From assembly GCA_965153455.1 (NCBI GenBank), contig OZ234493.1, positions 11,584,213 to 11,648,212 of the forward strand: a stretch of DNA of 64,000 bases, read 5' to 3'. Source of the DNA: Sphagnum compactum (lineage: Eukaryota). Below, one piece after another: positions 2,228-64,000 of the stretch (position 1 is the first letter of the stretch; each line of letters starts with the position of its first letter). Made by a program: the position numbers and the translations under genes. The notes beneath the pieces are model-generated. The model worked only from the letters and a program-made list of their open reading frames with translations, did not search any database and was not told where the DNA came from.

Positions 2228-5200
2228 TGCTGCTGCAACAACCGAGAGTGCGCAACAACACGAGTCAAAGCACGCTTGCGGAGCCTGCACAGCACCCCCC
2301 CCCACCGGGCCACCGCGCGGGGCTGCCGAGCCGGACGGCGAAGCCGCGGGGGCCGCCACGGAAGGATCGGGTAACCCGGTAGAAGCGCGGTCCACCGCTT
2401 GCTTTAGGTCGAATTTATCAACTCTGTGGGACCCTCCACACACACAGTGACTTTCTTCTTTTTTTAAGAAAATTAATTTCGCCATTTTGCTATTAAAGAA
2501 AACAGTCCCAAGCAACATGATCAAGGGAATTTTTGGAAATTTTCCAAAACAAATCGCCAAAATTTCAAAGAAGAAAGTTATGAAATAGCCAATATTTTTG
2601 GAGGATTTGGACAGATTTTTAGATTTCTTCTTTTGAAATCGCCATATTTGGCTAATAGGTTCTAGTGCTTCACCAACATGTAATACAGTTCCTAGATTAT
2701 TTTTTACTTCATTATTTGTCTTGTAACTAGATTAGCCAAATCCTCTGGTGGCTGGTCGCCAGTTTGAGAAAATTGAGGCAAAAAATAAAACACTGCCTTC
2801 ACCCCCCAAGTCCTATTGATTACCTTTTGTGGCGAAACTCACAATTTTGCAACTTTATTTTATTTTAGTGTGAAATGTGGCAACACCCATCATCCATGAG
2901 TCCCATTGATTTTTTGTTTTGGCGAACTTTCAATATTTTCTAGCCCCAAAATAAAATAGAATGATAAACATCAATGGCAGTGTTTTCGTTAGCAATTTTT
3001 TTGTTATAGCCAAAGTGACAATGATCCACAGCAGATTTAGCCAAAATTTGGTTACAAGTTAAATATGAAAATATTTTTTTCTTCAGAAAAATATCCTTCT
3101 ATATTGTGGGCTACCCACTTGAACCATGTATAGAAATCTGGTAATTTTAAAAATATTTGCTAGAATTCTGGCTATTGGAAATCTCAAAATGCACATGATT
3201 TTAGCTCTTTTGATTTTAAATATAGCTATTTGGCTATATAGTTGGGTCATCATATTCATGGAATACCAAAAGCTTGAGAAACGTGTGGAGTCTGGACTCC
3301 CAGTGTTTTTCCTTTTCAACAATTTTATTTTATTTACAAAAAATTGGGAATTTCTTTGGAATTTCTTTTCTTTTCTAGTATAAATTTGAGTAAATTGGAG
3401 AAAACTGGCTAATCATTGTTAATAAATTCGCCATATGTTCAATAACACTAAATTGAAAATAAAATATAATTCAATAATCAATAATTCAATAATCATTTCT
3501 TTTCTCTTGGACTTGTAAAAAGCACACTCCTTCCATTTTTCATTTTTGAAAAGCTCTATATGGACCCTTGTGGATGAAGCTCATCCAATTTAAACCTATA
3601 ACCATGAATGCCACAAAACCTTGAAAAATGCCACCTTACAAAGAATTGAACAAAGGTGGAAAAATTTATGGTTCAAAAACAATTTCCACCTTGGTTCAAA
3701 AATTATGAAAAAAATTGGTTCCAAAAGTTTTGAACCATAAAACCCTAATTTGTGTTTCTATATTGGGGAGTGCCCAATGTTTCATAAATTTGGTGATGGG
3801 CCAATCAAAATGGCTCGTTAAACAAAAGGATAAAAGATCAAGGATACCAAAATTCAACTTTGGCCAAAACATATGGGATAAAAAAGTGTGATGCTATTGG
3901 GAACATCTTGGGAACACATTGAGAACAAAAAAAAACATAAAAATCCTCTACCCACCCCCCAAAAACCCAAATGAAAAAAACTAGGCACTCCTCAATGCAT
4001 GTTGAGCCTTCTCATTGGTCGCATGAAAAAAAATTTATTTCTAAAAACTATTTGTTATCATTTTTTAACCTAGGCTAATAGAAGGAAGGGGAGTATGAGT
4101 GTATATTGATTATACATTTTTTTTAATGTTTGCTCGTACAATATCTTGCATCTTTGCAACGAAGTCAAATTTACAAGTTACATTTGATCATAAGATTAAT
4201 AGAAAATCAAAATCAAAATATCGTTTGAACAACAAGTTAAATTATGATAAACTTGTAGACAAAACTTCTCTAATTCAACATGGAAGTGTAGGAAGCTCAT
4301 TCAAGGTGAATTCTAGGTTAGATCATAAGACCTAATGCTAACAAATTTATTTATATATAGCTTTTGACATCTAGATTACTAAGGGGCAAATTACACTAAA
4401 AGCACTTAGGTTTTTGGGATCACAAAAAAATCAAGTGTGAAGGGTGATAAATTCAGGTTTTTATTAAAATAATTTGAGACCCATGCCTAAGCAAATGGCC
4501 TTGGATGAAAATAATGACAACCCATTCATGAGTGCCAAAAGCTCCCAATCACTCATCTATGATATTCTATTAATATTTATTTTTATTTTTGAAAAGAAAA
4601 GTTGGAGGGAATTTTTGGTGGCTCCGGCAATTACCAGCCCCCCCCCCCCCACAAAATTATTTCCCCTTAAACATTAAACACAATAATAAAAAGGGATTAA
4701 CTTTTTTTCTCTAATCGTCTTTTAAGCTCTTCAAGGTGTTGAAGCTTTTTGTGCATTAGAGTTGCTTATTGATAGTTCACTTTGTTGTTAGCTTTTGTTC
4801 ACAAGTTTTTTCTTTTCAGATGTGAAAGGCTATCCACATGATGGAGATTACTCACAATCACAAGAGTGAAATCAAAATTCTAAAAAAATTGTGAGTTGCC
4901 CCTTCCATGATTGAAATTTAGATTCGTGAATCTTTCTTTGAGAATGTCCAATTATAGTGCATTCAATTGGTAAGAAGGGATTCAAATCTTCACATACGAA
5001 GATTTTTTGTAGTGACAAGAGTGCAAAATTTCTTGAGGAGAAGCCCTTCGTTTTGTTCTCGAAATGTTCAAATTTAGTGGACAAAAAATAAGGGAGATTG
5101 TGGCGGATCAAAGAAGAGATGGGCCATGAAATAATCATGTGCTTGTTGTTTGTTCAAAATTGGGTTTCCACTAGGAACAAATGTGAGATGAAAGGAAAGT

Positions 5201-35876: not shown

Positions 35877-38210
35877 GATTCCGACAATTGTCTACCTTTG
35901 TGTTGCATGGCTTTGCATTCACAATCGACCTTCTAGCATAGGTTAAAAGATGTAAACAACCAAGGTGGTGACATTTCCAAAATAAGGGACTTGGGACACA
36001 ATATGGTAGCCAAGTCCAACCTCACGTTTTGGAAATGTCCCGATTTGTGGGCCTGACCCACCATAAAGCATGGGGGCAAACATTTTCATAAGCTGTAAAA
36101 ACCTCCAAGACTTTTCTTAATGTATTTGGAGGTTCACTTATAGCCGTAAAATATTAGGGGGCGAGAACGGTTAGTAATGTCATAATAGGGCATCAAATGT
36201 GTAAGTGGGAATGAAATTTTACAAAACGAAATAACTGGGACCCAAATTAGTTTTTCCACCAATTTTGGTGGTAAACTCAGTTTTATCCTCTCTTTCCTTT
36301 TTCCTGAGCGCCTGCATTGATGCTACGTATTTTTTCACTGCTCCTACCTGTACAAGTACTATAATTACTTTTGAACCTTGTGCATTAAATGCTGAGTTTC
36401 GACATTTCATACTGAGATTTAATAAATTTTTCCTTACTTTGGGGATACCACTGAAAGCGGGGATAGGGGGTGAAAGAGATGGTGACTTTACGGAAAACTT
36501 TAGTGCAGTCGGAAATTTCTCAGAATGCTTAAACCCATGTTTCCAACCAGAGTGTTTTCATTTCCTTTGCACTATGGTTGCATTTTACATTCCCCCAAAA
36601 TCATGACTTGTTGCTTAGGGTTCAAGTATGAACATGAGCTTTATTACCCAGCTACCCAATGCATTTTCTTAGTTGTTTTGTGTGTTTATGTTTGATTGCT
36701 TCTGCAACCACACTCCACTACACAACCATATACCTTGGTGGTGGAAATGTGTGTGATTTCACAACGTTGAATTTGCAATATTTTTCATGCTTGTGTGTTT
36801 GCAACGCGGTATTGAAGTACATAGTTTGGAGTTCTAACACCAAAAAGAATTTGGGTATTGGGTGGGAAAGCAAATCAAGAAGCATGGAGATTTGACGACA
36901 TGATTTTTTTTGTTCAGAGTTCCGGGACCAAAAAATATTGGGTGTTGGGTGGGAAAGCCAAATGAATCATGGAGATTTGATGTCATGAGTTTTTCATGAA
37001 TTGGATTGGGTGGATTGGGAAAGAATCCAACTTGTTTTTAGGGCCTGTTTGATTCAAGTCATTGATTCTCATTCATGAGAAAGAGAGACCCAAATTTCAT
37101 GGTGTGTTTTTGTTGGGATTTTGGAGGTTTTTGTTTTTACCACAAAAGCTTGAAGAATGATGAGAAGTTGTCGGTAAATTAATGGAGCTTGTTTTAGTGC
37201 AGCAGGGACAACAGGATTTCAATTTCATGTGGAATAGAGTTGGTGTGCAAAGAAAGAGAAATTGTTGATTTGTGATGAATCTGGTGAAATGGAAACCAAA
37301 AAAAAATGGGTTTCTTCGTTGTTCGTTAGTGCATGAGACTTTTAGATTTGACATTCTTTGCAGAATCTGTCTGTTGTAAGCAAAGCATCAGAGTGGTGCT
37401 ACAAGAGAGGAGAAGGAGGAGTGATGAATTTGTGGGTCAGCTTGTTTGTGTGCAACAATTTTTGTCAGTGCAAATTGACAGGTGTTTCTGAAGAATCACT
37501 CCTATCTGATCTGCTGGAAGTTGGTTTTTAGGGTTGCATTTTTGGAGTTGTTGGACAAGTAAAGCTCTAGCTTGGGGTGGTATTTAGGGTTACATTTTTG
37601 GAGCTGTTGGACAAGCAAAGAGCTCCAACTTGGGGTATGTGCAAGAGGTATGCGTATGCCCATGGAAGGAAATTTTTTTTAGGGTTTAAGGTTTTTGTTT
37701 TATTTTTCCTACCCCTGAAGCCCTTTCTGTTTTGCATTTTGTGGTTGTATGAAAGCAGAACAAAGAGTTATGCTCATGCAGATTGTGAAATTTTGTAGCT
37801 TGATGATGATTTTAGTATGTTGTTTTGCTCGTCCTTTGCGTAGTTTTTACAGTTCTGGGCAAGCAAAGTTGCTGCCACTAGTGCATCTTGATGAATTTCT
37901 TGGCTAATTGAGCTTTCGGGTAGTGAATTCATTCAAGAAGAACTGCTGTTATGCTCTGCAGGCTCTCTAATCCAGCTGAGAAAACTGTATCTGGAATGTA
38001 GGTTTTTCTCCTTTCTTTGTCTCTCTGTTTGTGATCCAAAATCTTAGCTGGGTGCTTGTGAAGTTTGATGCCTGATTCAGTCATTCATGCTTTGAACTAT
38101 TTTGTTGTCTTCTGATCATAGTGATTCTCCTGTTGTGCAGTACAGTGATCTGCTAGTTTTTTCTCACACGGGTACAAAGGAAAACAGGAGTACAGGAGAC
38201 CACTGCTACA

Positions 38211-39347
38211 ATGATGCTGGTAAAAGAGACAGTAATGAAGGAGACTCTATGGGGAAACCTTCCTTCAGAGATTCTAGAGAGGGTACTTGCTTTCTTGCCA
38301 GTTGATAGTCTCATCCGGATGAGATGTGTCCAGAGAAGGTGGAATGAGCTGATTGCCAACTCACACAGCTTTGCAAAGCATCATGCAAACTTTTCTCCTC
38401 ATTCACCATGGTTCATGCTTTTCACAAGGCAGATGTCATGCTTCCTGGCTTATGATATCAACTGCAATAAGTGGCATCGGGTGTCTGTCCCTGGTACACC
38501 ATTTCTTCCCAACCAGTTGCCTTTGTCAACAGACAGTGGATTGGTCTGTTACAGGCGGCGCTTTGTTGCTCATAAACGTCAGCAGCAGGAGCCAATTGAG
38601 CTCCTCGTGTGTAACCCTCTTACAGGTTCTTCCCGACAGCTACCCTCCCTCAATGCACTGAAAATTGAGGTACTGGGCATGGTTTGTGGTCTCGAGGCTG
38701 ATGGTGCTGCATACAGAATCTTCACTGTGGCGAATGTAAGTACGCTGGTGGGGGGATCATGTGACTACAAGGTCATTCTTTATGATTCGGTAACCAACCA
38801 ATGGACAACAGAGTGTTCATTTCAATCAGACGAGACATGGGTTCCAAGGCCTGCCATCTGGTTTCAGGGATCCTTCTGTTTTTTGTCACAGAGTGAAACT
38901 TTCTACACATTACAATTCTATGACATGCAACAACGGATGTGGATCGAACATGCAACAAAGAGGGAACAGTTCTTTTTCCACAATGATCCATTTCTGATGG
39001 AGTGTCAAGGTCGGCTGTTCATCGTGGGCGATACCCTTCAGATCTGTTTTCAGATCTTGGAGCTTGTGGAGGAGGAGGCAAAGGCGGAGGAGACTCACAG
39101 ATCAAGAAAGTGGGTCAAATTTGATGTGATGCCAAGATCCCTTTACTTGGACTACTTTGAGAATATGAATGTCATTGTGGCTGGGAATGGGAATTTCATC
39201 TTTTTCCAGACCCAAGGCTGTGAACGAACTCTCATGTACAATATCTCTCATAAAAGCTGGCAGTGGACATCAGATTCTGGGGTTGTATCCCAAGGTTCAC
39301 CATACACCGGACTCATGTTTCAACCTCGCATTGGAGCTGTAGCATAG
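38211..39347 (+). CDS. F-box protein with kelch-like/F-box-associated C-terminus, single coding exon, 378 aa
   Basis: N-terminal F-box WGNLPSEILERVLAFLPVDSLIRMRCVQRRWN, then SGLVC, LLVCNPLTGSSRQLP, LYDSVTNQW, LMECQGRLFIV, LMYNISHKSWQW and terminal FQPR. Confidence 0.92.
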   Translation: MMLVKETVMKETLWGNLPSEILERVLAFLPVDSLIRMRCVQRRWNELIANSHSFAKHHANFSPHSPWFMLFTRQMSCFLAYDINCNKWHRVSVPGTPFLPNQLPLSTDSGLVCYRRRFVAHKRQQQEPIELLVCNPLTGSSRQLPSLNALKIEVLGMVCGLEADGAAYRIFTVANVSTLVGGSCDYKVILYDSVTNQWTTECSFQSDETWVPRPAIWFQGSFCFLSQSETFYTLQFYDMQQRMWIEHATKREQFFFHNDPFLMECQGRLFIVGDTLQICFQILELVEEEAKAEETHRSRKWVKFDVMPRSLYLDYFENMNVIVAGNGNFIFFQTQGCERTLMYNISHKSWQWTSDSGVVSQGSPYTGLMFQPRIGAVA

Positions 39348-45023: not shown

Positions 45024-47656
45024 CTATGGGCATTGCAAATGCTGATAAACTTGACATCTGATCACTGATTGATTGAGTTGGAATCCAGGCACAGTCATAA
45101 ACTGCACTTTAGCGATATTACCACATTTTTCACATGGATCTGCCAATTGGACAATAGTCTCAATGTGTCGTGGATTGATTGGCATACCCTTTCCAACTCG
45201 TAAAATGTTGGCTGCTGGGTGCAACGAGAAAGCAAGGCAATGGAGTAACCATATGCATTTGGCAGCATCTAGGAATGCCCCCGTAAACAATTTTCTCTCA
45301 TCTGAATGTTTGAAAACAATGTTCCATGGGAATAGAAACCACATCTCCCGCATTTTCCGCTCACAGAACGCCAAGAACTTCGGCTCAAAATCCTGATGTT
45401 TCAAGTTTGCTGCATCGGTTGCATCCACCAGTCTCATGCGTTGAAACTCCTCAAACCGTGCTTTGCATCGCTTGCTTGGATCGATTATTAAGGTTAACCC
45501 TAAATCATCAAAGCTATCATTCTCAAAGCAATGGTACATAGCCTGCAAAACACAAAGCCCAAGCAAAAACTGGTTCATGAAAACCACCAACCAGTTCCTT
45601 GAAGCTTTTCCAAACAACAGTTCTAACAGGAGGCTCTTTGATTCTGAAAATTAACTTTTTTTAAAAAACCCAGAACTAGACATTCTCTAGAATTCTGAAA
45701 TTAAAAAAACCGCCCAACGGTGGAAAGAAAGAAAGGAAAAAAAAAAAAATTTACCTTGTTGAGGTTCGACTCAAGTGCATATGCAGTATGCTCTTGTTTG
45801 GCGAATGTAGCATCAGGGTCGAGAGCTTGAAGTGTCCTCCAAACTGAGTAGCCAGAGATTTCCATCTGTTTCATGAACAATTTGCAGAAATACCGAACTG
45901 CAACTCTCGCCCTCATAACACCCATCTCAAATAAATGTTCCTTTTCAGTCAGATTTATACATTCAAGTCCCGACGAAGGATTCCAAGTTGGAATCTGCAG
46001 CACCTGATGATCAGTAGCAGCACCAGCAGCATTCTGTGCCTCCCTCCCTGCAGAATCCTCCTGTAACCAGCTTCTTGAACTTCTTTCCGTTGCAGAAAAT
46101 GCTTTGGTCGTCTCCTCACCATCCTCCTGTAATAAGCTCCTTGAGCTTCTTTCCTTCGCAGAAAAGGCTTTGATCTCCTCATCTTCCTTCTGTAATGAGT
46201 CCCTTGAGCTTTTTTCCTTTGCAGAAAATGTTTTGGGCACCTGTTGATCCTCCTGTAACGAGCTTCTTGAGCTTTTTTCCATTGTAGAAAATGCTTTAGT
46301 CTCCTGGTGATCTTTTTGTAATGAGCTCCTTGAGCTTCTTTCCCTTGCGGAAAATGCTCTGCTCTCCAGGTTATCTTCCTCCTGTGATGAGCCTCTTGAG
46401 CTTCGTTCCTTTGCAGAAAATGCTTTGGTTGCATGATCCTCCTGTGATGGGCTTCTTTCCTCTGCAGAAAATCCTTTGGTCTCCTGATCCTCATCCTCCT
46501 GTACTGATGAGCTTATACTTTCCTTTGCAGAAGCTTCTTTGGTGTTAACTGAAGAGATGCAGCTGGATGCTGCTGCTGCTGCAGCAGCAGTTGCTCCTTG
46601 TTGGGTTCTTCTAATTGCTGCAGCAGCAGCAGCTTGTGGTGAGTGATCTTCAGTACTAGTGCTTTCTGGGAACCGGTAACTAGAAGAAGAAGATGTAGAG
46701 GTCTGATCTGAAGAAGCTGTGGTGGAGTCAGGGATTTCCAAGTTGTGCAATAGCAGCTTCTGGTGATGATCATCATCTGCAATACCCTGGGTCAACAGCT
46801 TTGAGTGTGATTGTTTTCCTGCTTGTTGCAGCTGCAGTAGTTCCGGAGGTTTCATGGATTCTGACTGTAGTTGCTGAAGCTTTCGTTCCAGAAGCTCAAT
46901 TGCTTCTTGTTTGTCCATAAGAGCTGATTGCTGTCTCTTACTGAGCTCTAGAAGTGCGTCGGCTCGAGTAATTTTCGCCCATGAGGCCTTGGACTCTAAG
47001 CTGCTGCTGCTGCTGTCATGCAGACCAGGAAGCCAACAATTGAAGAAACTGGAGAAGATAACTGAAAGTGGACCTCCGCGAGGTCTACATGAGCATGAGG
47101 AGCTGCTGCGATGATTCACACCACCACCACTACTACTACTGCAAGCAGCTTCCTGGATGGCATCATCACTGTAAAACATGAGCGGCGAACCATGAAGACC
47201 CAATCTGCCTGCTGCACGAAACCAACACAAAGAAGAAGAAGAAGATGAAGAAGACCCAATTATTCCGGAGGAAAGGAGAAGAACAACATGCATGACAGCA
47301 GATCTCAAAGAAATAAGTTGAGAACAAAACAAAGCTTAAAAGAACTCTAGAAGAAACCCCATGAAGAAGTCTGCACTACCTCTTTGAGTGTGAAGAGGTC
47401 TTGACGGTCTATGCAGCAGGTCAAGGGAATTGGGCACCAAGGATGCGGTGCTAGAAAAGCTAGTGGATGCTGCAGGCACTGGAGAAAAGCTGCAATTGTA
47501 GTTGTTGTTGTTGTTGTTGTTGTTGTTTTTCTGCAACAACATCCATGACGACTGTGAGCTGGTTGCATTTTTTCTGGAGTTCATCTGTTCTGTTTGATAT
47601 GTCATGTTCTGCAAGGACTGGCAATCAGGAGGCGTTGGTTTGCCTTGCTGCTGCAT
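45024..47656 (-). CDS. IRK-interacting protein / GIL1 / DUF641-related coiled-coil protein, 3 exons, about 750 aa
   Basis: Exons 47656-47380, 47211(or 47208)-45755 and 45542-45024 join in frame; the start codon is uncertain. Coiled coil ALMDKQEAIELLERKLQQLQ. C-terminal domain ARVAVRYFCKLFM...HTAYALESNLNKAMYHCFENDSF...FLAFCERKM...FLDAAKCIWLLHCLAFSLHPAANILRV...FMTVPGF...VIRCQVY is typical of this family. Confidence 0.8.
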
Positions 47657-55048: not shown

Positions 55049-56479
55049 AAAAGTACTCGTAAAATTAAAATGTTTCTTGAATATCATTACCAATATCACC
55101 ATGGATGAAATTCATTCATGAATGTTCACTTTTCATATGTAATATGGATGAATTCATTTGGTACCGTGCCCACCTTTCATCCATTATATAAGTTCATTCA
55201 CATGAATGAAATTCATCCATCATTGACATTTTCATTCATAATAAAGGAAATTCATTCACCAATGTCTATTTCTTATCCATAATGTGTAATTAAGAAGGTG
55301 CTCATGATGGTTCTTTGGATGGTGGGCCATATTCCAAAACTCTAAATGGAGCTTTTGTGAACTAAGTCCCCAAATGCGTATCAATACAAGTAGTTCCCTT
55401 CCCCCATTGCCTTTAGTGTGTTCAACATCAATATAAAATATAATCTTGCACCATAATATTATTTCTTTCATGTCTATATTTTCATACATTATTAGAATAA
55501 AATTTCATTTAGATTTTTTTATTAATCATGCATCATGTTCTTGTCTTTGATTATCATGTTTCATGGTTAGATTAAGATTTAAATATGCTTTTGCCATAAT
55601 ATGTCCTAGATTCCATTTTCTTTGTAAAAAAATTTACCATTGTGATAGTTTTCATGATTGTGGTAAACTTTATGAAAGTAAAATAAAACTTGAACTCTTG
55701 TGGAATAGTTCAAAACATGTTGGAACAACATGTTCCATCTAGAAAAATATTTGATGTTCATGTACGTGACATTGTTAGCAAAAGTGCTTATTCAAATAAT
55801 TCATTCATCACCGGTGGTAAAACTAATTTTGATCTTCTTTTTAATGTAAAATCATTGAATTGTCTTTCTTGTTTGTTTCCCACGTTGGAATCAATCCATG
55901 ACTTCATTAAAATTGTACCCAAAAAAATGTGTTTGTTTGTGATTTTGTTGCAACTATCAAAATTTCCTAAGGACAATTGTACTTTCATTATTCAAATCCA
56001 AAAATTATGTACACATATGTTAAATATTTCCAAAGAATTTGATGACTTGGTTAAAAGTATAAAATTGTGCATATGAAATGGAAGGTGAGTCCATTGGAAC
56101 TTAATACCCCATGTGTTGGATATTTGTGCTTTGATTCCTCAAGTTACACGTTTAAATTTTGTTGGTGAAAAGGTCCAAGTGAGTTAAGAGATATTTTCCT
56201 ATTGCGAGAGATGCAAAATAAACTTGTTCAAGTTGTAACTTATTGCATTGATGTTTTCCATTCATATGTTTGTTACTAATAATGTGTTGGTGGGCTATAA
56301 ATAATATATTTGCAACAAATTTTTGCAATCATTAATTACAATTCATTTTTACCTGCACCATGGATTAAATTCATTAATATCATTGTACAATTTTAGAAGT
56401 TCTTTCTAGAAATTTCCATCTACAATTTTGCATGTGTGTGTATTGTTGTGTTTTCTTTGATAAAAAGTCTACCCATGTT

Positions 56480-57870
56480 AAGCTACTTCCAGCTATTCTT
56501 ACATTATTTTTCATTGTTATAAGTTATTTCACCCTACATTATTTACGACTATTTATGGCTATTTTTAGTTATTTCACCTTAAGTTACTTTCAATTATTTT
56601 AAATGTTTTTGGTTATTTTAAGATATTTCACCTTAAGTTATTTTCGACTATTGTAAGTTTTTTTTGCTATTGTATGTTATTTTTGGCTATTATAAGTTAT
56701 TTCGCTTTAGGTTATTTACGACTATTATAAGTCTTTTTGTTATTTTGAACTATTTCATTTTAGGTTATTTTCAGCTATGTGAGGCTATTGTTGGTTACTT
56801 TTGGTTATTGAAGGTTATTTCACTTTATGTTATTATTGGTTATTATAGGTTATATTACCATAGGCTATTCGTGACTATTGTTGGTTACTGTATTGGTGGT
56901 TATTGGTGCCCATTCTATTGGTGGCTATTGGTAGCTATTCTATTGGTAGTTATTGGTTACTTTTCTATTGGTGGCTATTAACGACTATTTTATCAATGGC
57001 TATTGGTGGCTATTACTAGTTATTCTACTAATGGCTATTAGTGGTTATTCTATTAATGGTTATAAATGATTATTCTATTACTGACTATTAATAATTATTT
57101 TATTGATGGTTATTAGTGGTTATTATATTAATGGCTACTAGTAATTATTCTATTAATGACTATTAATAATTATTTTATTGATGGCTATTAGTGGTTATTC
57201 TATTAATGGTTATTAGTGGTTATTCTATTAATGACTATTAGTGATTATTCTATTAGTGACTATTAATAATTATTTTACTGGTGGCTATTGGTGGTTATTC
57301 TATTAATCGTTATTCGTGATTATTCTATTGATGACTATTAATAATTATTTTATTAATAACTATTAGTAAAATAAGTTTATTAATGGCTATTGGTAACTAT
57401 TATATTGGTGGTTATTAATGGTTATTCTATTGGTGACTATTTTATTATAAGCTATTATTAGATATTCTAAGCTATATTATCATAGGTTATTAGTTATTTT
57501 ATTGTAGGCTATTTTAAATTATTTTTCATAGGCTATGATTCATCATTCTAGGTTATTTTACCTTAAGCCATTATACTTTATTTTCGATTATTTTAAGTTG
57601 TTATATACTTAAGATAAAATAACTTATAATAACATAAAATAAAATGACCTTGAATAACCTAAAATATAACTTGAAATAATATATATTAACTTAAAATAAA
57701 ATAACTTAAGGTGTAGCCTAAGGTTAAATGAATAATTTAATTCAAAATAACTTAAAGTAAAAAGCCTATAATAACTTAAGATATAAGTTATAATAACTAA
57801 GATAGCATAATATAATATAGGGCATATCATAAAGTAACATAAGGTATTTAAAACAACAACATAAAAATAA
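56480..57870. repeat. Low-complexity GGCTATT/GGTTATT-rich repeat that switches to the complementary motif near 57610
   Basis: Dense TTATT/GGYTATT units up to about 57600, then AATAAC/TAGCC units. Confidence 0.75.
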
Positions 57871-58685
57871 ACCTATTTACCATAATATATTATAATAATG
57901 AATTATGTCAGTTAGAAGTGAAACACGATGTTTACATAGTGATAGTATATTGAAATAACTTTAACCAAGGTGAAATCACTAAAGTGCAGTGAATTTATTT
58001 CACTTTTAAGGTCCCAAAATGATTTAAGCTAATGAACTACACCCCACTTTTGTACTAGTGAAATGTTATTAAATAGACTCTATATTTTCTAAGTTAACAT
58101 GTTGAAGAACAAATTTTAGAATGAAACAATGTTAAAATATGTTTACCATTTGGCAACCATGTAAAACCATGGGATCTAACAACCTAATTACCAACACAGA
58201 AAAAGGTTGTTGGATAGAAAAGAAATAACAAAAAAATGGAAAAGCTTGAGGGTAGCAACTGTTTTTTGTCTACCTATTGTTATGTTGTAGCTACCGTCTT
58301 ACAACAACTATCGTCTTCTGTAGCCCTGAAAAATAGCCACAACCCTTTGCAGATCTCCTACAATTTTGCCTACCATCTGTAGTGCCTGCAAACCCTTTAT
58401 GGCTGCTACTTACCATCTACAACACCTTCAAACCCTTTGTGGTTATTGTTTACCATCTACAGCGCTTGCAAACATTTTGTGGATTTTGTTTATTGTTTAA
58501 AACAATGTTATTTTCCTTGTAGACCTCAAATTTCATGTTACCTTTTTGTTATTACCTTCCAATGGTAGCTACCATCCTGTGGCAAAAGGTATTTTCTATT
58601 CCCTAAAAACTACCACAGAAAGTAGATAGTATTTTTAATCTTATTAAAAAAACACAAACTAATATATGAACACAATAAAACTCTA

Positions 58686-59279
58686 TGTAATACTAATATG
58701 AACCACTCTCTCCTCTCTTTTCTTACTTTAAGTAAAACGAAATACCAACAAAGAGCCATGAAAATCCATCAACCATTTTCCATTACAATGAAAGTACACC
58801 TTGTTTCCATACTCTCTTCCTTGCTATTCAATGTCACACACACACTTCTTCTTTATAAAAAAACTCTCCGAGCCACATCCAACCTAGAATCATACAAAGG
58901 AATGATCCACAATCCTCCTCTTCAAAGGATAAATAAGAAATCCAAGAAGGATTATTCACCACACAAGGGTTGAGTCCTTATTTTCTTAAATTTTCTTATC
59001 CTTCTAAATTTCTTTATCCTAATCCCTTCCACACATCCTAATTAAGGGAAATCCATTCGTCCCTTATCCACTTTGACTAATTAATTTAAATGGCTTCACC
59101 CCTTCATAAATAAATGATGGTAAGTATGACATTTATCACTAGTAATTAAATAATTACTATGATGCCCTTCAAAATAAACTAAACTAGGAGATTATTTTTA
59201 GTAATTAATATTATTTTTATTAGAATTCTTCTTAGAATTAACTCCTAATTATTCTACTCTATGAAGGTAGAACATTATA
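58686..59279. mobile_element. Possible decayed solo LTR
   Basis: Starts TGTAAT and ends ATTATA (a TGTAAT...ATTACA-like pair). It interrupts a CTACCA-rich repeat present on both sides. No convincing 5-bp TSD. Confidence 0.3.
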
Positions 59280-61831
59280 TTCACGATACTACCATAAACA
59301 ACACTTTCATTTGAAAATTCTTTTGAAATTGTTTTGTCATTTGACGGTAACTACCATCCAATGACGGTATTACCATCTCCTAACATCCATAAGACAATTT
59401 TCTACCCTTAATAGACCATCCCCACAATTAAATTTGGGGTAAATATTCAAGTTTCAATGGATTATTTTTGTTTTGGTTGTTTTTTGTGAAAAACAAAAAA
59501 AAATTATTGTGAAAGATTTTGTTGTTTTTATTTGGTCTTACAAATTCAGAATTGGTTAAAAATATTGTTAGGATTTACATCTGAGCAAAATAATTTTTGT
59601 AAGGATTTAAATTTATGGCAAAAGATAATTTCCAAATCAAAATGGTAGAATGGCAACAAACATGAATCACATGGCGACTCAAAGTTTGCAAAGATAAATG
59701 GATCAAGTTGCAATTCAACCGAATGAAGAAGAAAATGTAATAAAAGAAAAATTGTCGTTGTTGAATGATATAATGTAGTTTCACACTCCAAAAAGAGTAC
59801 AATATATTGTGTCAAGAATACTAAGACAAAGGAACAACCTATAGAGTACAACACACCATCTACAATACTTATGGAACCTCGGGAAACATTTATTGGTATA
59901 GCAATGAAGCAACCCAATATCTGAATGAAACTGTCAATGAAGGCAATATTTCTAGACATTGAACCAAAAGGATGGGAAGGTAATGCAAACATGGTTACCT
60001 TTACATATCTACAATGAAGGGTATAGGAAAGAAAAAAAATGAGTCTATCATTTTGAAGACATGGTCATTTGTACAAACCTAAAGAGATACTATATGTCCA
60101 AGAAAAAATGTAGAAAGGGTTAGAGATAATATCCACATATAAATGTTTTGTTTAACAATCTACTTCACCTTAATACTGTCAATTCCATGAGGAGTGGGAT
60201 GAAGACCTGGACAATGATGAAGTTGAACATGCAATACCATAATATGTCAAAAGTACACTAATAAAAGGTTAAGAGGAACATGTTTTTGCAACCAAGGTTG
60301 TCAAAATTGACGTGACACAACCATTTTGAATTGGAGATCATGTTGCCATCGGTGTGATGTGCCGATATGTAGTGATTGAAATTCGGTTGATAATCCTATG
60401 GCAATTGAATCTTATCAATCACCATTTGTGTGGTGATTGAAATTTTTTGGTCGCCAATCTTGTGGCAACATAAAACATTTCGTGGCTAATCGTGTGGTGT
60501 CCAATTTATTTTTTTATCACCATACACATGGCGACTAAAAGCTCTTTCACTCTAGATTTTGGTCATTTGATCCACGATGGATTGATCTCCACCATTGATT
60601 TGGCAACAAAATTTGGTGATGCTTGGTAATAAAAAAACGAACCTTATAATTTCAATTCATTTTTTCCTTTGAGGTGTGTGGGCCTTGTCTTGTTTAATAA
60701 GAAATCACTGCCATATACTTTAGGAGGGAGGGGTGAAATCTCATAGGTGTTTGAATTTCAAATCATCATATTCCATTTATAATTGGTGCTAAATTTCAAT
60801 TGTAGCCTTGAAGGTGGAGTTCGATTTTATTGTTAAATACCCTAATTATATTAATCAAGAATATTGTGAGGTGTTAGTTTATTATAAATTGGTCAACCAA
60901 CCTTGGTAGATGTAGTTTTAGATGAAAGTCCTTTAAGGTGGAACAAAAGCAATTATATTTTTAATATTAAATGAAAAACCCAAATACCTCAACAATTGGG
61001 GAAACTAATTAAAGTTTTGACTATATGTCCCTTTCATTATATCACCTTTTATTTTTTTCATTTGAAAATTTGGCAAGGCATTAGTAAAACTATTTTGAAC
61101 ACATAGAGGGGTGACACAATGTCAAAGGAAGAAAAAGGGTATTTTGTAAGGTGAACAATTTTTTTCAATTCAATCAAGTTCCGAATATCTTAGTGGGGTG
61201 TAGATAATTATATCGAGGCCAATACACATCAAAAGATGCACTTAATTATTATCTATCCATAGCAATTTGTTTTGCACAAAGTGGTGTACGTAGCATAATC
61301 TTTTCATGTGGTGGAAGGAGGGTGTGTTGTATTGGACAAATGCCCTTGCATATATAATATTTATTAAATACCATGAAAACTAGTTACATTCATTCCACCT
61401 TTTGGAATTATGATTTGTTTAAACACTTTCCATTTAAAAGGATGTTATAATCATTTTGAAATTGTTATCTATGGCATTTTTGACTTGAAAAGTTTTAAAA
61501 GACAATTTTTTTAAATCACCCTAAAGGATTTTCACCTTTTTATTGGCAAAAAAAATTAAGTTCAACATGGTGGAAAAGAAAGTGGTGAAAATTGGCTTTA
61601 ACAAGGACCACCAATGCACCAAACCGTTTCAACCATAGATTTAACAACATGGACAACCAAACAAAGTTGTTCCACAAAAATCTAAACAACCTTCGAAAGG
61701 AAATTAAGGTGGCATTGACATCATTCTTTGGACAACAACAATCATATTTGAATTGCTAGACTTGTGAAAGGAATCATTTTGTTCACATAAATGCAAGGGG
61801 ATAAACTTGGGTCCAAGGTGTGCAACTATAA

Positions 61832-63705
61832 TGTGAGCATTGTGGCAAGTTGGGTCATGACATAATACATTGATATTATGTGCATTTCAAGTTCTGACCA
61901 AACTCAAATTGTGGCAATCAAAGTGCCCAAACGGCATGGGAATGGTGTCATCCAAAAAAAAAAAGGTGGCCAAGATCAAAATATAAAACAAAATTTGAAC
62001 CAAGGTCAAATATATGGAGGTCCTATAGAACAAGGTATGGTGAACATGATTGCATAATTGGAACAATGACTTGGAAACCATTGCCATTACTCATGTGTCA
62101 CCAACTCCAAGGCCATTGGTTCCAAATGGAACCCTAATTTGTTTATTAGGTGAATTTGGCAAGATTGGGCTTCATGTGCGAAGTTGCATTACTAAAACCA
62201 ATGCATCTTACAATGACTTTTATTTAATAAGCTATCCAAGTTCATGAACCTTGAGGAACAAATGTGGCATTGGATCCACAAAAGGGAAAAACTAATCAAC
62301 AAGGTCGCCTTTTATAATTACTCACATTAGTAGAAATTATGCCAACCTCTTCCATGCACTAATTTGACCAAATGTGTGTGGATTGGAACAAATTGCGTCC
62401 TTAGCGAGGACATTATGTCTACCTTTGATGCTCATTTCAAAAGCCAAAACTTTCTTGGGAGTGACAATCACAGTTCATCAAGTTTTTTTGTTTTCTCCAA
62501 CCATGATTGCAACATTAAAATTTGGATTCATTGTTGTGTTCAAATTAGTGGCCACACTTTGTGAAAGCAAGGAGAGGTTAGCATCGTTTGTAAAATTGGT
62601 AGATGTTGTGTCACAAGATGAACTTGTGGACATGGGAATTGTTATGACCACTTTTGTTGCACCATTGCAAGCAACAATTGTAAGGTTACAAGAATTGCTT
62701 GCTAGGTTGACAATTGATTGTGTAATGATAACACCAAATTGATCTTATTAAATAATGAACATAAGGTTTTGTGTGTTGACCACTTTATCAACTAACAAAT
62801 ATTGGCCAATGCAAGTTTTGACAGACTCTAAAGTTTAACCATTGATGTTAGGGCAAAGGGGCTATAGTTTGGCTTCATGAACATAGATTTGAAACCTTGT
62901 ACATTTTAAATAAAATTTTCCTTAACTAGATCGCAGAAGGTTTGAAAGATGACACACTAAACATTCAATGTGAGATTACAAGTGGATCATCCCACAAATG
63001 GATCCACCATGAGAGTCAAGGTTGTTGTGATAGATGCCATGCCATATGATGTGTTGATGGGTGGAACAATTTTATTCCCTATGGGTTACACATTAGATTT
63101 TTTGGAAGGAGATTGCTTCTTATAAGTTGGGATGGCAACTAGGAGATAGCATGGGTGCACACTTTCCAATACATTTCATTGGGAAGAAGTTTTGAGCTAA
63201 AGAACACGATGCCAAGTTTGCTTGCATGTTTTGGGATTGTGAATTTTGGTTGAGAACTCATAAAAAACAATGTTTCCTTCAAGGATCATTACCCAATGTT
63301 GGAAGAGGAACGAGGAATGGAAATGTCTCAAACAAATTTGGCATCAATCAAGAGGCACATTAGTGGGGCACTAATGCACATTTGCAACATGTAGCAAAAC
63401 ATCATGCACAACAAGATTGGCAAGAGGCCTTTGCACTATTAAATGCCAACTCTATTATTGCCTTGGCACCATCTCACTTGTCACCATTGCCTACCATTTC
63501 ATTCGTTTAACAACATCTCAAGAAGGGGATCTATGTTTTGGAGTTGAACACTAAATTACCTACAATGTTGCAAGCAAGAATTTCAATTCAAAAATACCTC
63601 TATGTGAAGAATGATGAAGTGGCTAAATATGTTTCATTATATTATGCGGCTTACCTTATTCAACATCCTAACTTACTCCCATTATCAACAATTTAAGGAT
63701 ACTTC
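61832..63705 (+). mobile_element. Fossil LTR-type (Ty3/gypsy-like) retroelement: Gag CCHC knuckle, aspartic protease, then a putative cytosine-methyltransferase N-terminus
   Basis: CEHCGKLGHDIIH* at 61832-61873 (CX2CX4HX4C with the last C mutated to TGA). VLTDSKV*PLMLG at 62815-62853 and YDVLMGG at 63045 (protease D-S-G and DxLxG motifs). GIYVLEL--NTKLPTMLQARISIQKYLYVKNDEVAKYVS...HPNLLPLSTI*GYF at 63526-63705. Many stops and frameshifts. Confidence 0.65.
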
Positions 63706-64000
63706 AATTACGTGTATGCTTGTTTAATAAAATTTATTTTGATGTGTTATTGTAAACAAGTAGGCAACTAGATATGGTAGTGCACGACATATGATTGCAT
63801 GATCATAACACACGCCAAAAAGTCATGCCATGGCCGTGTGCTAAAGCACAATCCTGTCCAAAACATTAAAATACTACACATTGAAATCATTAATTGCATA
63901 GTGAAATTATTGTCTGGCTTGATTAGCTGCATTCACATGTGCACTTTTACATATAGAGCACCTTGACCATTGACCTAGCAAAGGGGGCTATTTAGCACCT

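Follow-up and report, generated by a model that had tools for sequence, protein, structure and literature searches.

Relic of a probable Ty3/gypsy-type retrotransposon with a DNMT3-type methyltransferase domain in Sphagnum compactum, and its bryophyte relatives

A 64,000-nucleotide stretch of Sphagnum compactum DNA (contig OZ234493.1, positions 11,584,213 to 11,648,212 of the forward strand; "the window", in whose own coordinates positions are given below) was analyzed, and 61516-63714 on its + strand was identified as what is very probably a dead, doubly truncated relic of a bryophyte Ty3/gypsy-type retrotransposon that carried a DNMT3-type C5 cytosine methyltransferase (DNMT) domain between protease and reverse transcriptase (RT). 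The relic was mapped by tblastn of full-length related proteins (P numbers below) and by two profiles built from natural relatives, and was found to be collinear with Gag-zinc knuckle-protease-DNMT-RT-RNase H(-integrase) polyproteins of Marchantia polymorpha, Calypogeia fissa and Sphagnum fallax, and with unnamed open reading frames (ORFs) from metagenomes. It follows the order of P0019 residues ~230-943, and the collinear tblastn matches over 61706-63702 reached summed E-values of 3e-33 (P0018) and 1.5e-29 (P0019). The features on which the original prediction of a Gag-protease element with a methyltransferase domain had been based, namely a Gag zinc knuckle (61832), DSK (62824) and YDVLMG (63045) of a degenerate protease, and GIYVLEL...HPNLLP (63526-63705), were all present on the + strand when the sequence was re-read, and aligned to relatives. 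As a dead fragment the copy in the window is ordinary; the family from which it comes is unusual.

The methyltransferase segment and the linker before it

The segment behind the protease, GIYVLEL/NTKLPTMLQARISIQKYLYVKNDEVAKYVS...HPNLLP (63526-63705, + strand), lies within 63520-63714 (+), which by phmmer, tblastn and profile corresponds to the N-terminal 65 residues of a DNMT3-type C5 methyltransferase domain and retains the motif I strand, the first helix and motif II ('YLYV.NDE'). For phmmer, 63097-63696 was read in one frame with stops as X and searched against 1.84 billion representative proteins, giving 14 proteins at E <= 1e-3, of which three were near-identical short ORFs and 11 were distant relatives at 28-46% identity (best distant match 1.2e-10). 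Named proteins of the liverwort Calypogeia fissa accounted for two of the 14, and the Pfam DNA_methylase cut-off of 22 was passed by two (P0007, 38.6 bits; P0008, 25.5 bits), both of which run on into GWPCQGHS and ILENV. In P0009 (Calypogeia fissa) a protease is followed by a DNMT start, collinear with window 62515-63702. A profile built from the DNMT regions of 13 relatives matched 63463-63714 at its positions 18-106 of 461, with an independent E-value (i-E) of 1.9e-14. The earlier reading of the segment as the S-adenosylmethionine (SAM)-binding start of a C5 methyltransferase is borne out by this match and by the DNA_methylase matches of the relatives.

Motif I of C5 cytosine methyltransferases, FxGxG, forms the SAM loop, and it is not intact in the relic, from which the F-G-G-I codons are gone. 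The segment was aligned to 'GICVLDLFGGISTGLAAVLQAGI.V.KYLYVE.DETARRVS...YP.LLP' of relatives with a gap of exactly four residues; where distant relatives read 'GI(C/R)VLDLFGGISTGLAAVLQAGI.V.KYLYVE.DE.A...YP.LLP', the relic reads 'GIYVLEL----NTKLPTMLQARISIQKYLYVKNDEVA...HPNLLP'. The gap corresponds to a 12-base deletion between 63546 and 63547 that removes exactly F-G-G-I, as had been anticipated for the FxG codons after ELx, and the deletion is common to L001 and L002, two of the homologous loci described below. A chance resemblance of an ordinary protease-RT linker to motif I has a negligible probability: a 61-residue ORF here matched no Pfam family and the FxG signature itself is missing from the window, but over 100-123 residues the segment shares 35-44% identity with proteins in which GWPCQ and ILENV follow, the profile match is strong, and the four missing residues form a clean 12-base gap. 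An ordinary linker, which the original prediction had named as a possible outcome, is ruled out by this continuation of the relatives.

Between protease and DNMT, the 63178-63519 interval (+) is homologous to the linker that the family itself has at this place: P0010, P0018 and P0019 align across its whole length in one frame, with three stops. Two unrelated fragments brought together by chance are thereby ruled out. A piece of a host DNMT3 gene (or of some other element) might be supposed to have come to lie beside an unrelated Gag-protease fragment, given that the copy is incomplete and that AT-rich repeat regions of this sort often contain nested insertions; this is extremely unlikely, because the 340-base linker is homologous to that of the family with order and spacing kept, the same arrangement is found in at least nine unnamed ORFs and 17 named bryophyte proteins, and a further family member at locus L006, better preserved yet broken, has protease, a complete DNMT and the start of RT collinear on one strand. 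The unrelated adjacent insertion that had earlier been considered is extremely unlikely on the same grounds.

Homology to the family ends at 63702-63714, 28 residues ahead of the catalytic GWPCQ, in agreement with the predicted truncation near 63710. Nothing downstream matches past DNMT profile position 106 of 461, and catalytic motif IV (PC) and motif VI (ENV) are absent from the window. The sequence after the break (63715-64000) is unrelated to the family, with no family match by tblastn or profile, and is 91-95% identical to loci L001-L005; P0001 reads through the same junction into it.

The bryophyte family of relatives

A profile search gave 26 longer family proteins, 15 from Marchantia polymorpha, one each from Calypogeia fissa and Sphagnum fallax, and nine unnamed (metagenome or run-assembly ORFs). 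Pfam DNA_methylase was above its cut-off in 11 of the 14 relatives scanned. The domain order was zf-CCHC (387), protease (773-862; Asp_protease_2) and DNMT (1071-1159) in P0040, and DNMT, RVT_1 and RNase H (RT_RNaseH, RT_RNaseH_2) in P0032 and P0037, and an integrase core (rve) was found in P0036 (Sphagnum fallax). These domain matches give a family architecture of Ty3/gypsy type that runs from Gag and two knuckles through protease, DNMT, RT and RNase H to integrase, the methyltransferase occupying the place at which protease would otherwise meet RT. Ty3/gypsy hallmarks were found at the level of the family, and the window itself holds only the knuckles and protease. The claim that the DNMT belongs to the retroelement was upheld, as P0032, P0037 and P0040 have it in the same protein, between protease and RT.

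Motif counts in the 26 proteins, made with our own regular expressions, were 21/26 for motif I, 21/26 for GWPCQ and 22/26 for [LF]ENV, with all three in 15/26. Eleven members, on average 34% identical, were aligned and showed no variation in F and G of motif I, in E-N-V or in the Arg of motif VIII, and P-C-Q was conserved at >=90%. The FGG, PCQ and ENV motifs that the relatives had been expected to carry, with the DNMT between protease and RT/RNase H, were found. Conserved catalytic residues in the intact members argue for an enzyme that may be active. When P0018 was searched against PDB sequences, the best matches were DNMT3A (3.6e-11), DNMT3C (3.8e-10) and DNMT3B (6.4e-8), with weaker matches to a plant 'DNA methyltransferase' chain (4onj, 1.2e-6), M.HaeIII (4.5e-5) and DRM2 (0.004). 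The alignment with DNMT3A begins at motif I and extends as far as motif VIII, motifs IX-X being covered by a second, weak stretch, and the family DNMT appears nearest to DNMT3 rather than to DNMT1, DRM or bacterial enzymes.

A number of ORFs without interruption (P0018, P0019, P0027, P0039, P0040, P0042) stop 77-150 residues past the DNMT without RT, even on 9-10 kb contigs. Within L006 (2846-3491), the ORF in the DNMT frame (to 3148) overlaps that in the RT frame (from 3117), which is the +1 frame, and splicing across this point is apparently assumed in the gene models P0032 and P0036. This suggests that Gag-protease-DNMT is a first ORF, joined to RT-RNase H-integrase by frameshift or restart. 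A scan of viral_contigs with the 11-protein alignment gave 27 pattern matches, none of which was confirmed.

A domesticated host gene of Gag-protease-DNMT type, lacking RT and no longer mobile, would fit the six ORFs that end after the DNMT, and would fit the presence of the relic at a conserved locus in several related genomes. Such an origin is very unlikely, as many diverged copies occur in one genome (the 15 Marchantia models), RT, RNase H or integrase follow in P0032, P0036, P0037 and L006, the relic is full of stops in all lineages examined and drew no RNA reads in the ~12% of a polyA run that was read, and conservation of the locus is equally high in the non-coding flanks.

Parts, decay and locus of the relic

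Upstream of the linker, a retropepsin-type protease remnant was assigned to 62806-63177 (+), to which P0009 residues 102-226 and P0019 residues 629-757 align collinearly. The active-site DSG is now DSK at 62824, the relic's 'LTDSKV*PLMLG' being aligned to 'LLDSGAQPLMLG' of relatives, and YDVLMGG at 63045 aligns to their 'YDVLVGG.VLYPMGF'; frame changes lie near 62860 and near 63100, and Pfam Asp_protease_2 and gag-asp_proteas match the relatives at the homologous place. A pre-protease conserved region ('LFS...VF.LAATLCE...LPARPAID', 62473-62805, +) was delimited by tblastn of P0018, P0021, P0032, P0041 and P0009, and the 124-residue open frame 62368-62742 sits in this region. Between knuckles and protease, a further conserved stretch ('EPRG..ELDPQRGE..RLP') occupies 62222-62362 (+; profile positions 444-490, i-E 1.9e-6; P0027 residues 461-497, 49% identity). 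The double CCHC zinc-knuckle region spans 61697-61921 (+) and has five in-frame stops, P0019 residues 287-359 aligning at 61706-61921 (profile positions 284-344, i-E 5.2e-4). Knuckle 1 is a remnant at 61754-61792 that reads C-stop-T-C at 61754; knuckle 2 (61832-61873) has the sequence C-E-H-C-G-K-L-G-H-D-I-I-H-stop, a CX2CX4HX4C knuckle in which TGA has replaced the final Cys codon, and aligns to the second knuckle of P0019, 'CDHCGRAGHTRDRC'. Homology begins with a Gag C-terminal remnant at 61516-61626 (+), matched at positions 219-255 (i-E 5.9e-6) of a Gag profile made from the first 560 residues of 13 relatives, and P0036 residues 159-193 align to 61564-61710 by tblastn. Gag profile positions 1-218 had no match in 56000-62600 on either strand, and the element is truncated at this 5' end.

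The relic contains 21 stops in 564 aligned codons, and the frames of its aligned pieces (1,2,2,1,0,1) indicate at least four frame changes. Its observed/expected CpG ratio is 0.18 versus 0.34 for the whole window, with TpG+CpA at 1.57, and this CpG depletion with TpG/CpA excess is a signature of long-standing cytosine methylation and deamination. RT and integrase were not found in the 64-kb window by tblastn of relatives, RNase H had no match in the whole window, and in the 5.3 kb by which the homologous locus L002 extends further downstream no remnant of DNMT, RT or integrase was found; the lack of RT, RNase H and integrase is due to truncation, the copy being a fragment. The original prediction, that PC, ENV, RT and integrase could not be seen in this copy, holds for the window. 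Self-comparison showed no direct repeats pairing 59000-64000 with the rest of the window and no other family copies within the window; both relic ends are truncated, so that no long terminal repeat (LTR) is expected. L002 and L003 likewise have no LTR-like direct repeats within them, apart from one short tandem in L003. In polyA RNA run X22 of the source species, 0 reads fell on 61400-63835 with ~12% of the run read, and RNA runs X15-X20 contain 5-7% of sampled words, which is no evidence of expression or habitat. The relic is a dead copy cut at both ends, and with the SAM loop and everything from motif IV onward gone it cannot act as an enzyme; lacking SAM loop, catalytic cysteine, RT and integrase, this copy has no mechanism.

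A metagenome scan with P0001 gave six loci, L001-L006. Two groups, L001/L002 (mutual identity 99.4%) and L003-L005 (99.5-99.9%), match the window at 85-95% identity from 58443 or 57389 up to 64000, and the aligned span of 5.5-6.6 kb takes in flanks on both sides, several kilobases outside the relic. The stretch was present in eight runs of the source species at >=0.81 of sampled words, and in three other coded species at 0.25-0.34. In organism B a single contig spans 61451-64000, showing 85 differences from the window and 11 gaps, and organisms C and D show two variants of the locus, one having a 175-180-base deletion also seen in L003-L005. Because it stands at the same locus in related genomes, the relic is one old fixed insertion inherited by related species or subgenomes, and it shows that the family was present in the moss lineage before these separated. 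Conservation of the locus is equal in the non-coding flanks, which indicates recent common descent and not selection.

The ~90% look-alikes were considered as transposed copies or an amplified truncated subfamily, and this was rejected, since their flanks are collinear too. On that explanation, P0001, P0003, P0015 and P0016 would form a non-autonomous truncated-DNMT subfamily that spread after the deletion, and the four database proteins do share the FGGI deletion and the same post-break sequence; it is nevertheless very unlikely, as the P0001 loci align over 5.5-6.6 kb that take in both sides of the relic, they fall into two loci (L001/L002 and L003-L005, each 99.4-99.9% identical within itself), and one contig in organism B with two variants in C and D is a pattern of orthologues or homeologues.

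Several further observations concern the locus. L003-L005 lack 175 bases (63375-63548), by which the end of the linker and the 'VLEL' strand are lost, and at window 60077 they have an additional ~820 bases; the matching joint, 63368>63549, is seen in a contig of organism D beside an undeleted variant. Tandem arrays of 15-, 25-, 50- and 100-base repeats lie in 56552-57469 (the 25-base unit occurring 17 times at 57000-57431), just upstream of where L003-L005 homology starts, and the 25-base-array unit is also found in L003 around 3161-3283. Open frames of 172 residues (59549-60064, -; in an AT-rich block) and 115 residues (58626-58970, +) lie upstream of the relic. The window has a GC content of 0.35-0.47 and long open frames over 1-48000 (e.g. 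38157-39344, +, 396 residues; 45704-47335, -, 544 residues), and is AT-rich (0.25-0.37) and repeat-like from 48 kb on.

Weight of the reading and comparison with known systems

Several points weigh against reading 61516-63714 as a relic of a retrotransposon that carried a DNMT3-type methyltransferase. An LTR, target-site duplication, RT and integrase are not demonstrable for the relic itself, so that the label retrotransposon rests on homology to the relatives. Pfam searches of six ORF pieces of the relic matched 0/6 families, and a word-based protein search with the 54-residue protease ORF returned three candidates, none of which was scored. The Marchantia and Sphagnum proteins that link DNMT to RT are gene models and may bridge a stop or frameshift, and the uninterrupted metagenome ORFs P0018, P0039, P0040 and P0042 end before any RT. 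No streptophyte Gypsy-DNMT3 has a demonstrated enzyme activity: in a yeast assay, KnitGypsy-Dnmt3 of the charophyte Klebsormidium nitens gave no methylation, a result that its authors call inconclusive in the passage cited (PMC5890265).

In intact elements, the DNMT would be made together with Gag-protease, possibly as the end of the first ORF, and may methylate element cDNA, the new insertion or nearby host DNA. For algal elements, de Mendoza et al. propose, in the section cited, that cDNA could be methylated at reverse transcription to pass as self, to shape the chromatin of the insertion, or to self-limit (PMC5890265). A joint reading of the above, put forward tentatively and held at a little short of an even chance, is that liverworts and peat mosses harbor a Gypsy lineage, undescribed in print and possibly still active, with a complete DNMT3-type methyltransferase directly behind the protease, perhaps as the C-terminal domain of a Gag-protease-DNMT first ORF (and thus in Gag-like amounts), the module being the same as one placed between RNase H and integrase in chlorophyte Gypsy elements. 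If this is true, the DNMT module has moved among slots or retrotransposon lineages within green plants and has reached land plants, and in the model plant Marchantia these copies would be a further source of de novo methylation, encoded by transposons, and would raise the apparent number of host DNMT genes.

Retrotransposons that carry a silencing enzyme are a striking reversal of the host-transposon arms race, and published descriptions of them come from dinoflagellates and a single charophyte alga. The statement in the original prediction that such DNMT-capturing elements occur in dinoflagellates and charophytes agrees with the cited parts of PMC5890265, whose survey table, as cited, includes Physcomitrella and not Marchantia or Sphagnum. 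No description of DNMT-bearing retrotransposons in bryophytes or land plants was found in open-access papers and bioRxiv, and none of a bryophyte DNMT-bearing retrotransposon in passages of PMC11982613, PMC12344493 and PMC6453930; according to the passage cited from a 2019 opinion paper, land plants 'such as tracheophytes' lack transposons that encode DNA methylases (PMC6338049). The kind of element is known from a charophyte, and land plants are a new host range. The relatives place such elements, with catalytic residues conserved, in at least two liverworts and one peat moss. As Marchantia is a genetic model with published methylomes, the activity of the DNMT, its targets, and whether it helps or restrains the element can be tested. 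For Marchantia, Calypogeia and Sphagnum fallax together, at least 17 family polyproteins are deposited under 'hypothetical' or 'unnamed' labels, and one UniRef name begins 'DNA (cytosine-5...'; with at least 17 polyproteins annotated as ordinary proteins, some of them as DNA methyltransferases, host DNMT gene counts can be distorted.

Among the closest known systems is KnitGypsy-Dnmt3, a Gypsy-borne DNMT3 (de Mendoza et al. 2018, PMC5890265), which, in the parts of that paper cited, shares with the bryophyte family a DNMT3-type domain with unrearranged motif order inside a streptophyte Gypsy coding region, and copies that are silent or decayed and methylated. The host is a charophyte there and land plants (bryophytes) here. 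Compared by description only, the KnitGypsy-Dnmt3 DNMT shares its ORF with RT and RNase H according to the cited part of the peer-review file, whereas the bryophyte DNMT follows the protease and several ORFs stop before RT. The protein searches returned no Klebsormidium sequence. The persistence into this lineage suggested in the original prediction, by vertical descent from charophyte elements, is a hypothesis. SymbioDIRS-Dnmt3 of Symbiodinium, for which alone de novo CG methylation was demonstrated (in yeast) in the cited part of PMC5890265, also has a DNMT3-type domain on a retrotransposon, but is a tyrosine-recombinase DIRS element of a dinoflagellate with an unrelated backbone.

EpiLTRs and DAM-LTRs (Fernandez-Moreno et al., bioRxiv 10.64898/2026.05.21.726589) are likewise LTR retrotransposons with DNA methyltransferase modules that move between slots; as described in the sections cited, their DNMTs are sister to DNMT4, and they differ further by an adenine methyltransferase and a chromodomain and by their hosts, Euglena and Cymbomonas. 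In those sections 'streptophytes (Gypsy-DNMT3)' is cited as earlier work only, with no bryophyte, moss, Marchantia or land plant, and the cited part of a 2025 paper from the same group mentions only the earlier streptophyte report. Among solved structures, mammalian DNMT3A/3B/3C (PDB 6brr, 2qrv, 8tci and others) are the best matches, from which the bryophyte DNMT differs by PCQ in place of PCN in motif IV, a longer motif I-IV insert, the lack of PWWP/ADD and its polyprotein context.

Gypsy polyproteins of chlorophyte type, with the order RT-RNase H-DNMT-integrase-PHD, were found as 177 proteins at E <= 1e-3, and among the best 120 of the 177 the only plausible name is 'pol [Scenedesmus sp. PABB004]', another protein bearing the label of a Minisyncoccia metagenome-assembled genome, probably misbinned. 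We know of no paper that describes such elements. Their DNMT module is clearly of the bryophyte elements' kind, that of P0043 being 42% identical to that of bryophyte P0018 over 331 residues (E 6e-62), both having GWPCQ, 'AHR.R.WW.N' and 'RRQVLGQA.D.N', and the RT-RNase H regions of the two are 35% identical. The chlorophyte-type elements have the DNMT between RNase H and integrase, with a C-terminal PHD finger in addition, whereas the bryophyte elements have it between protease and RT.

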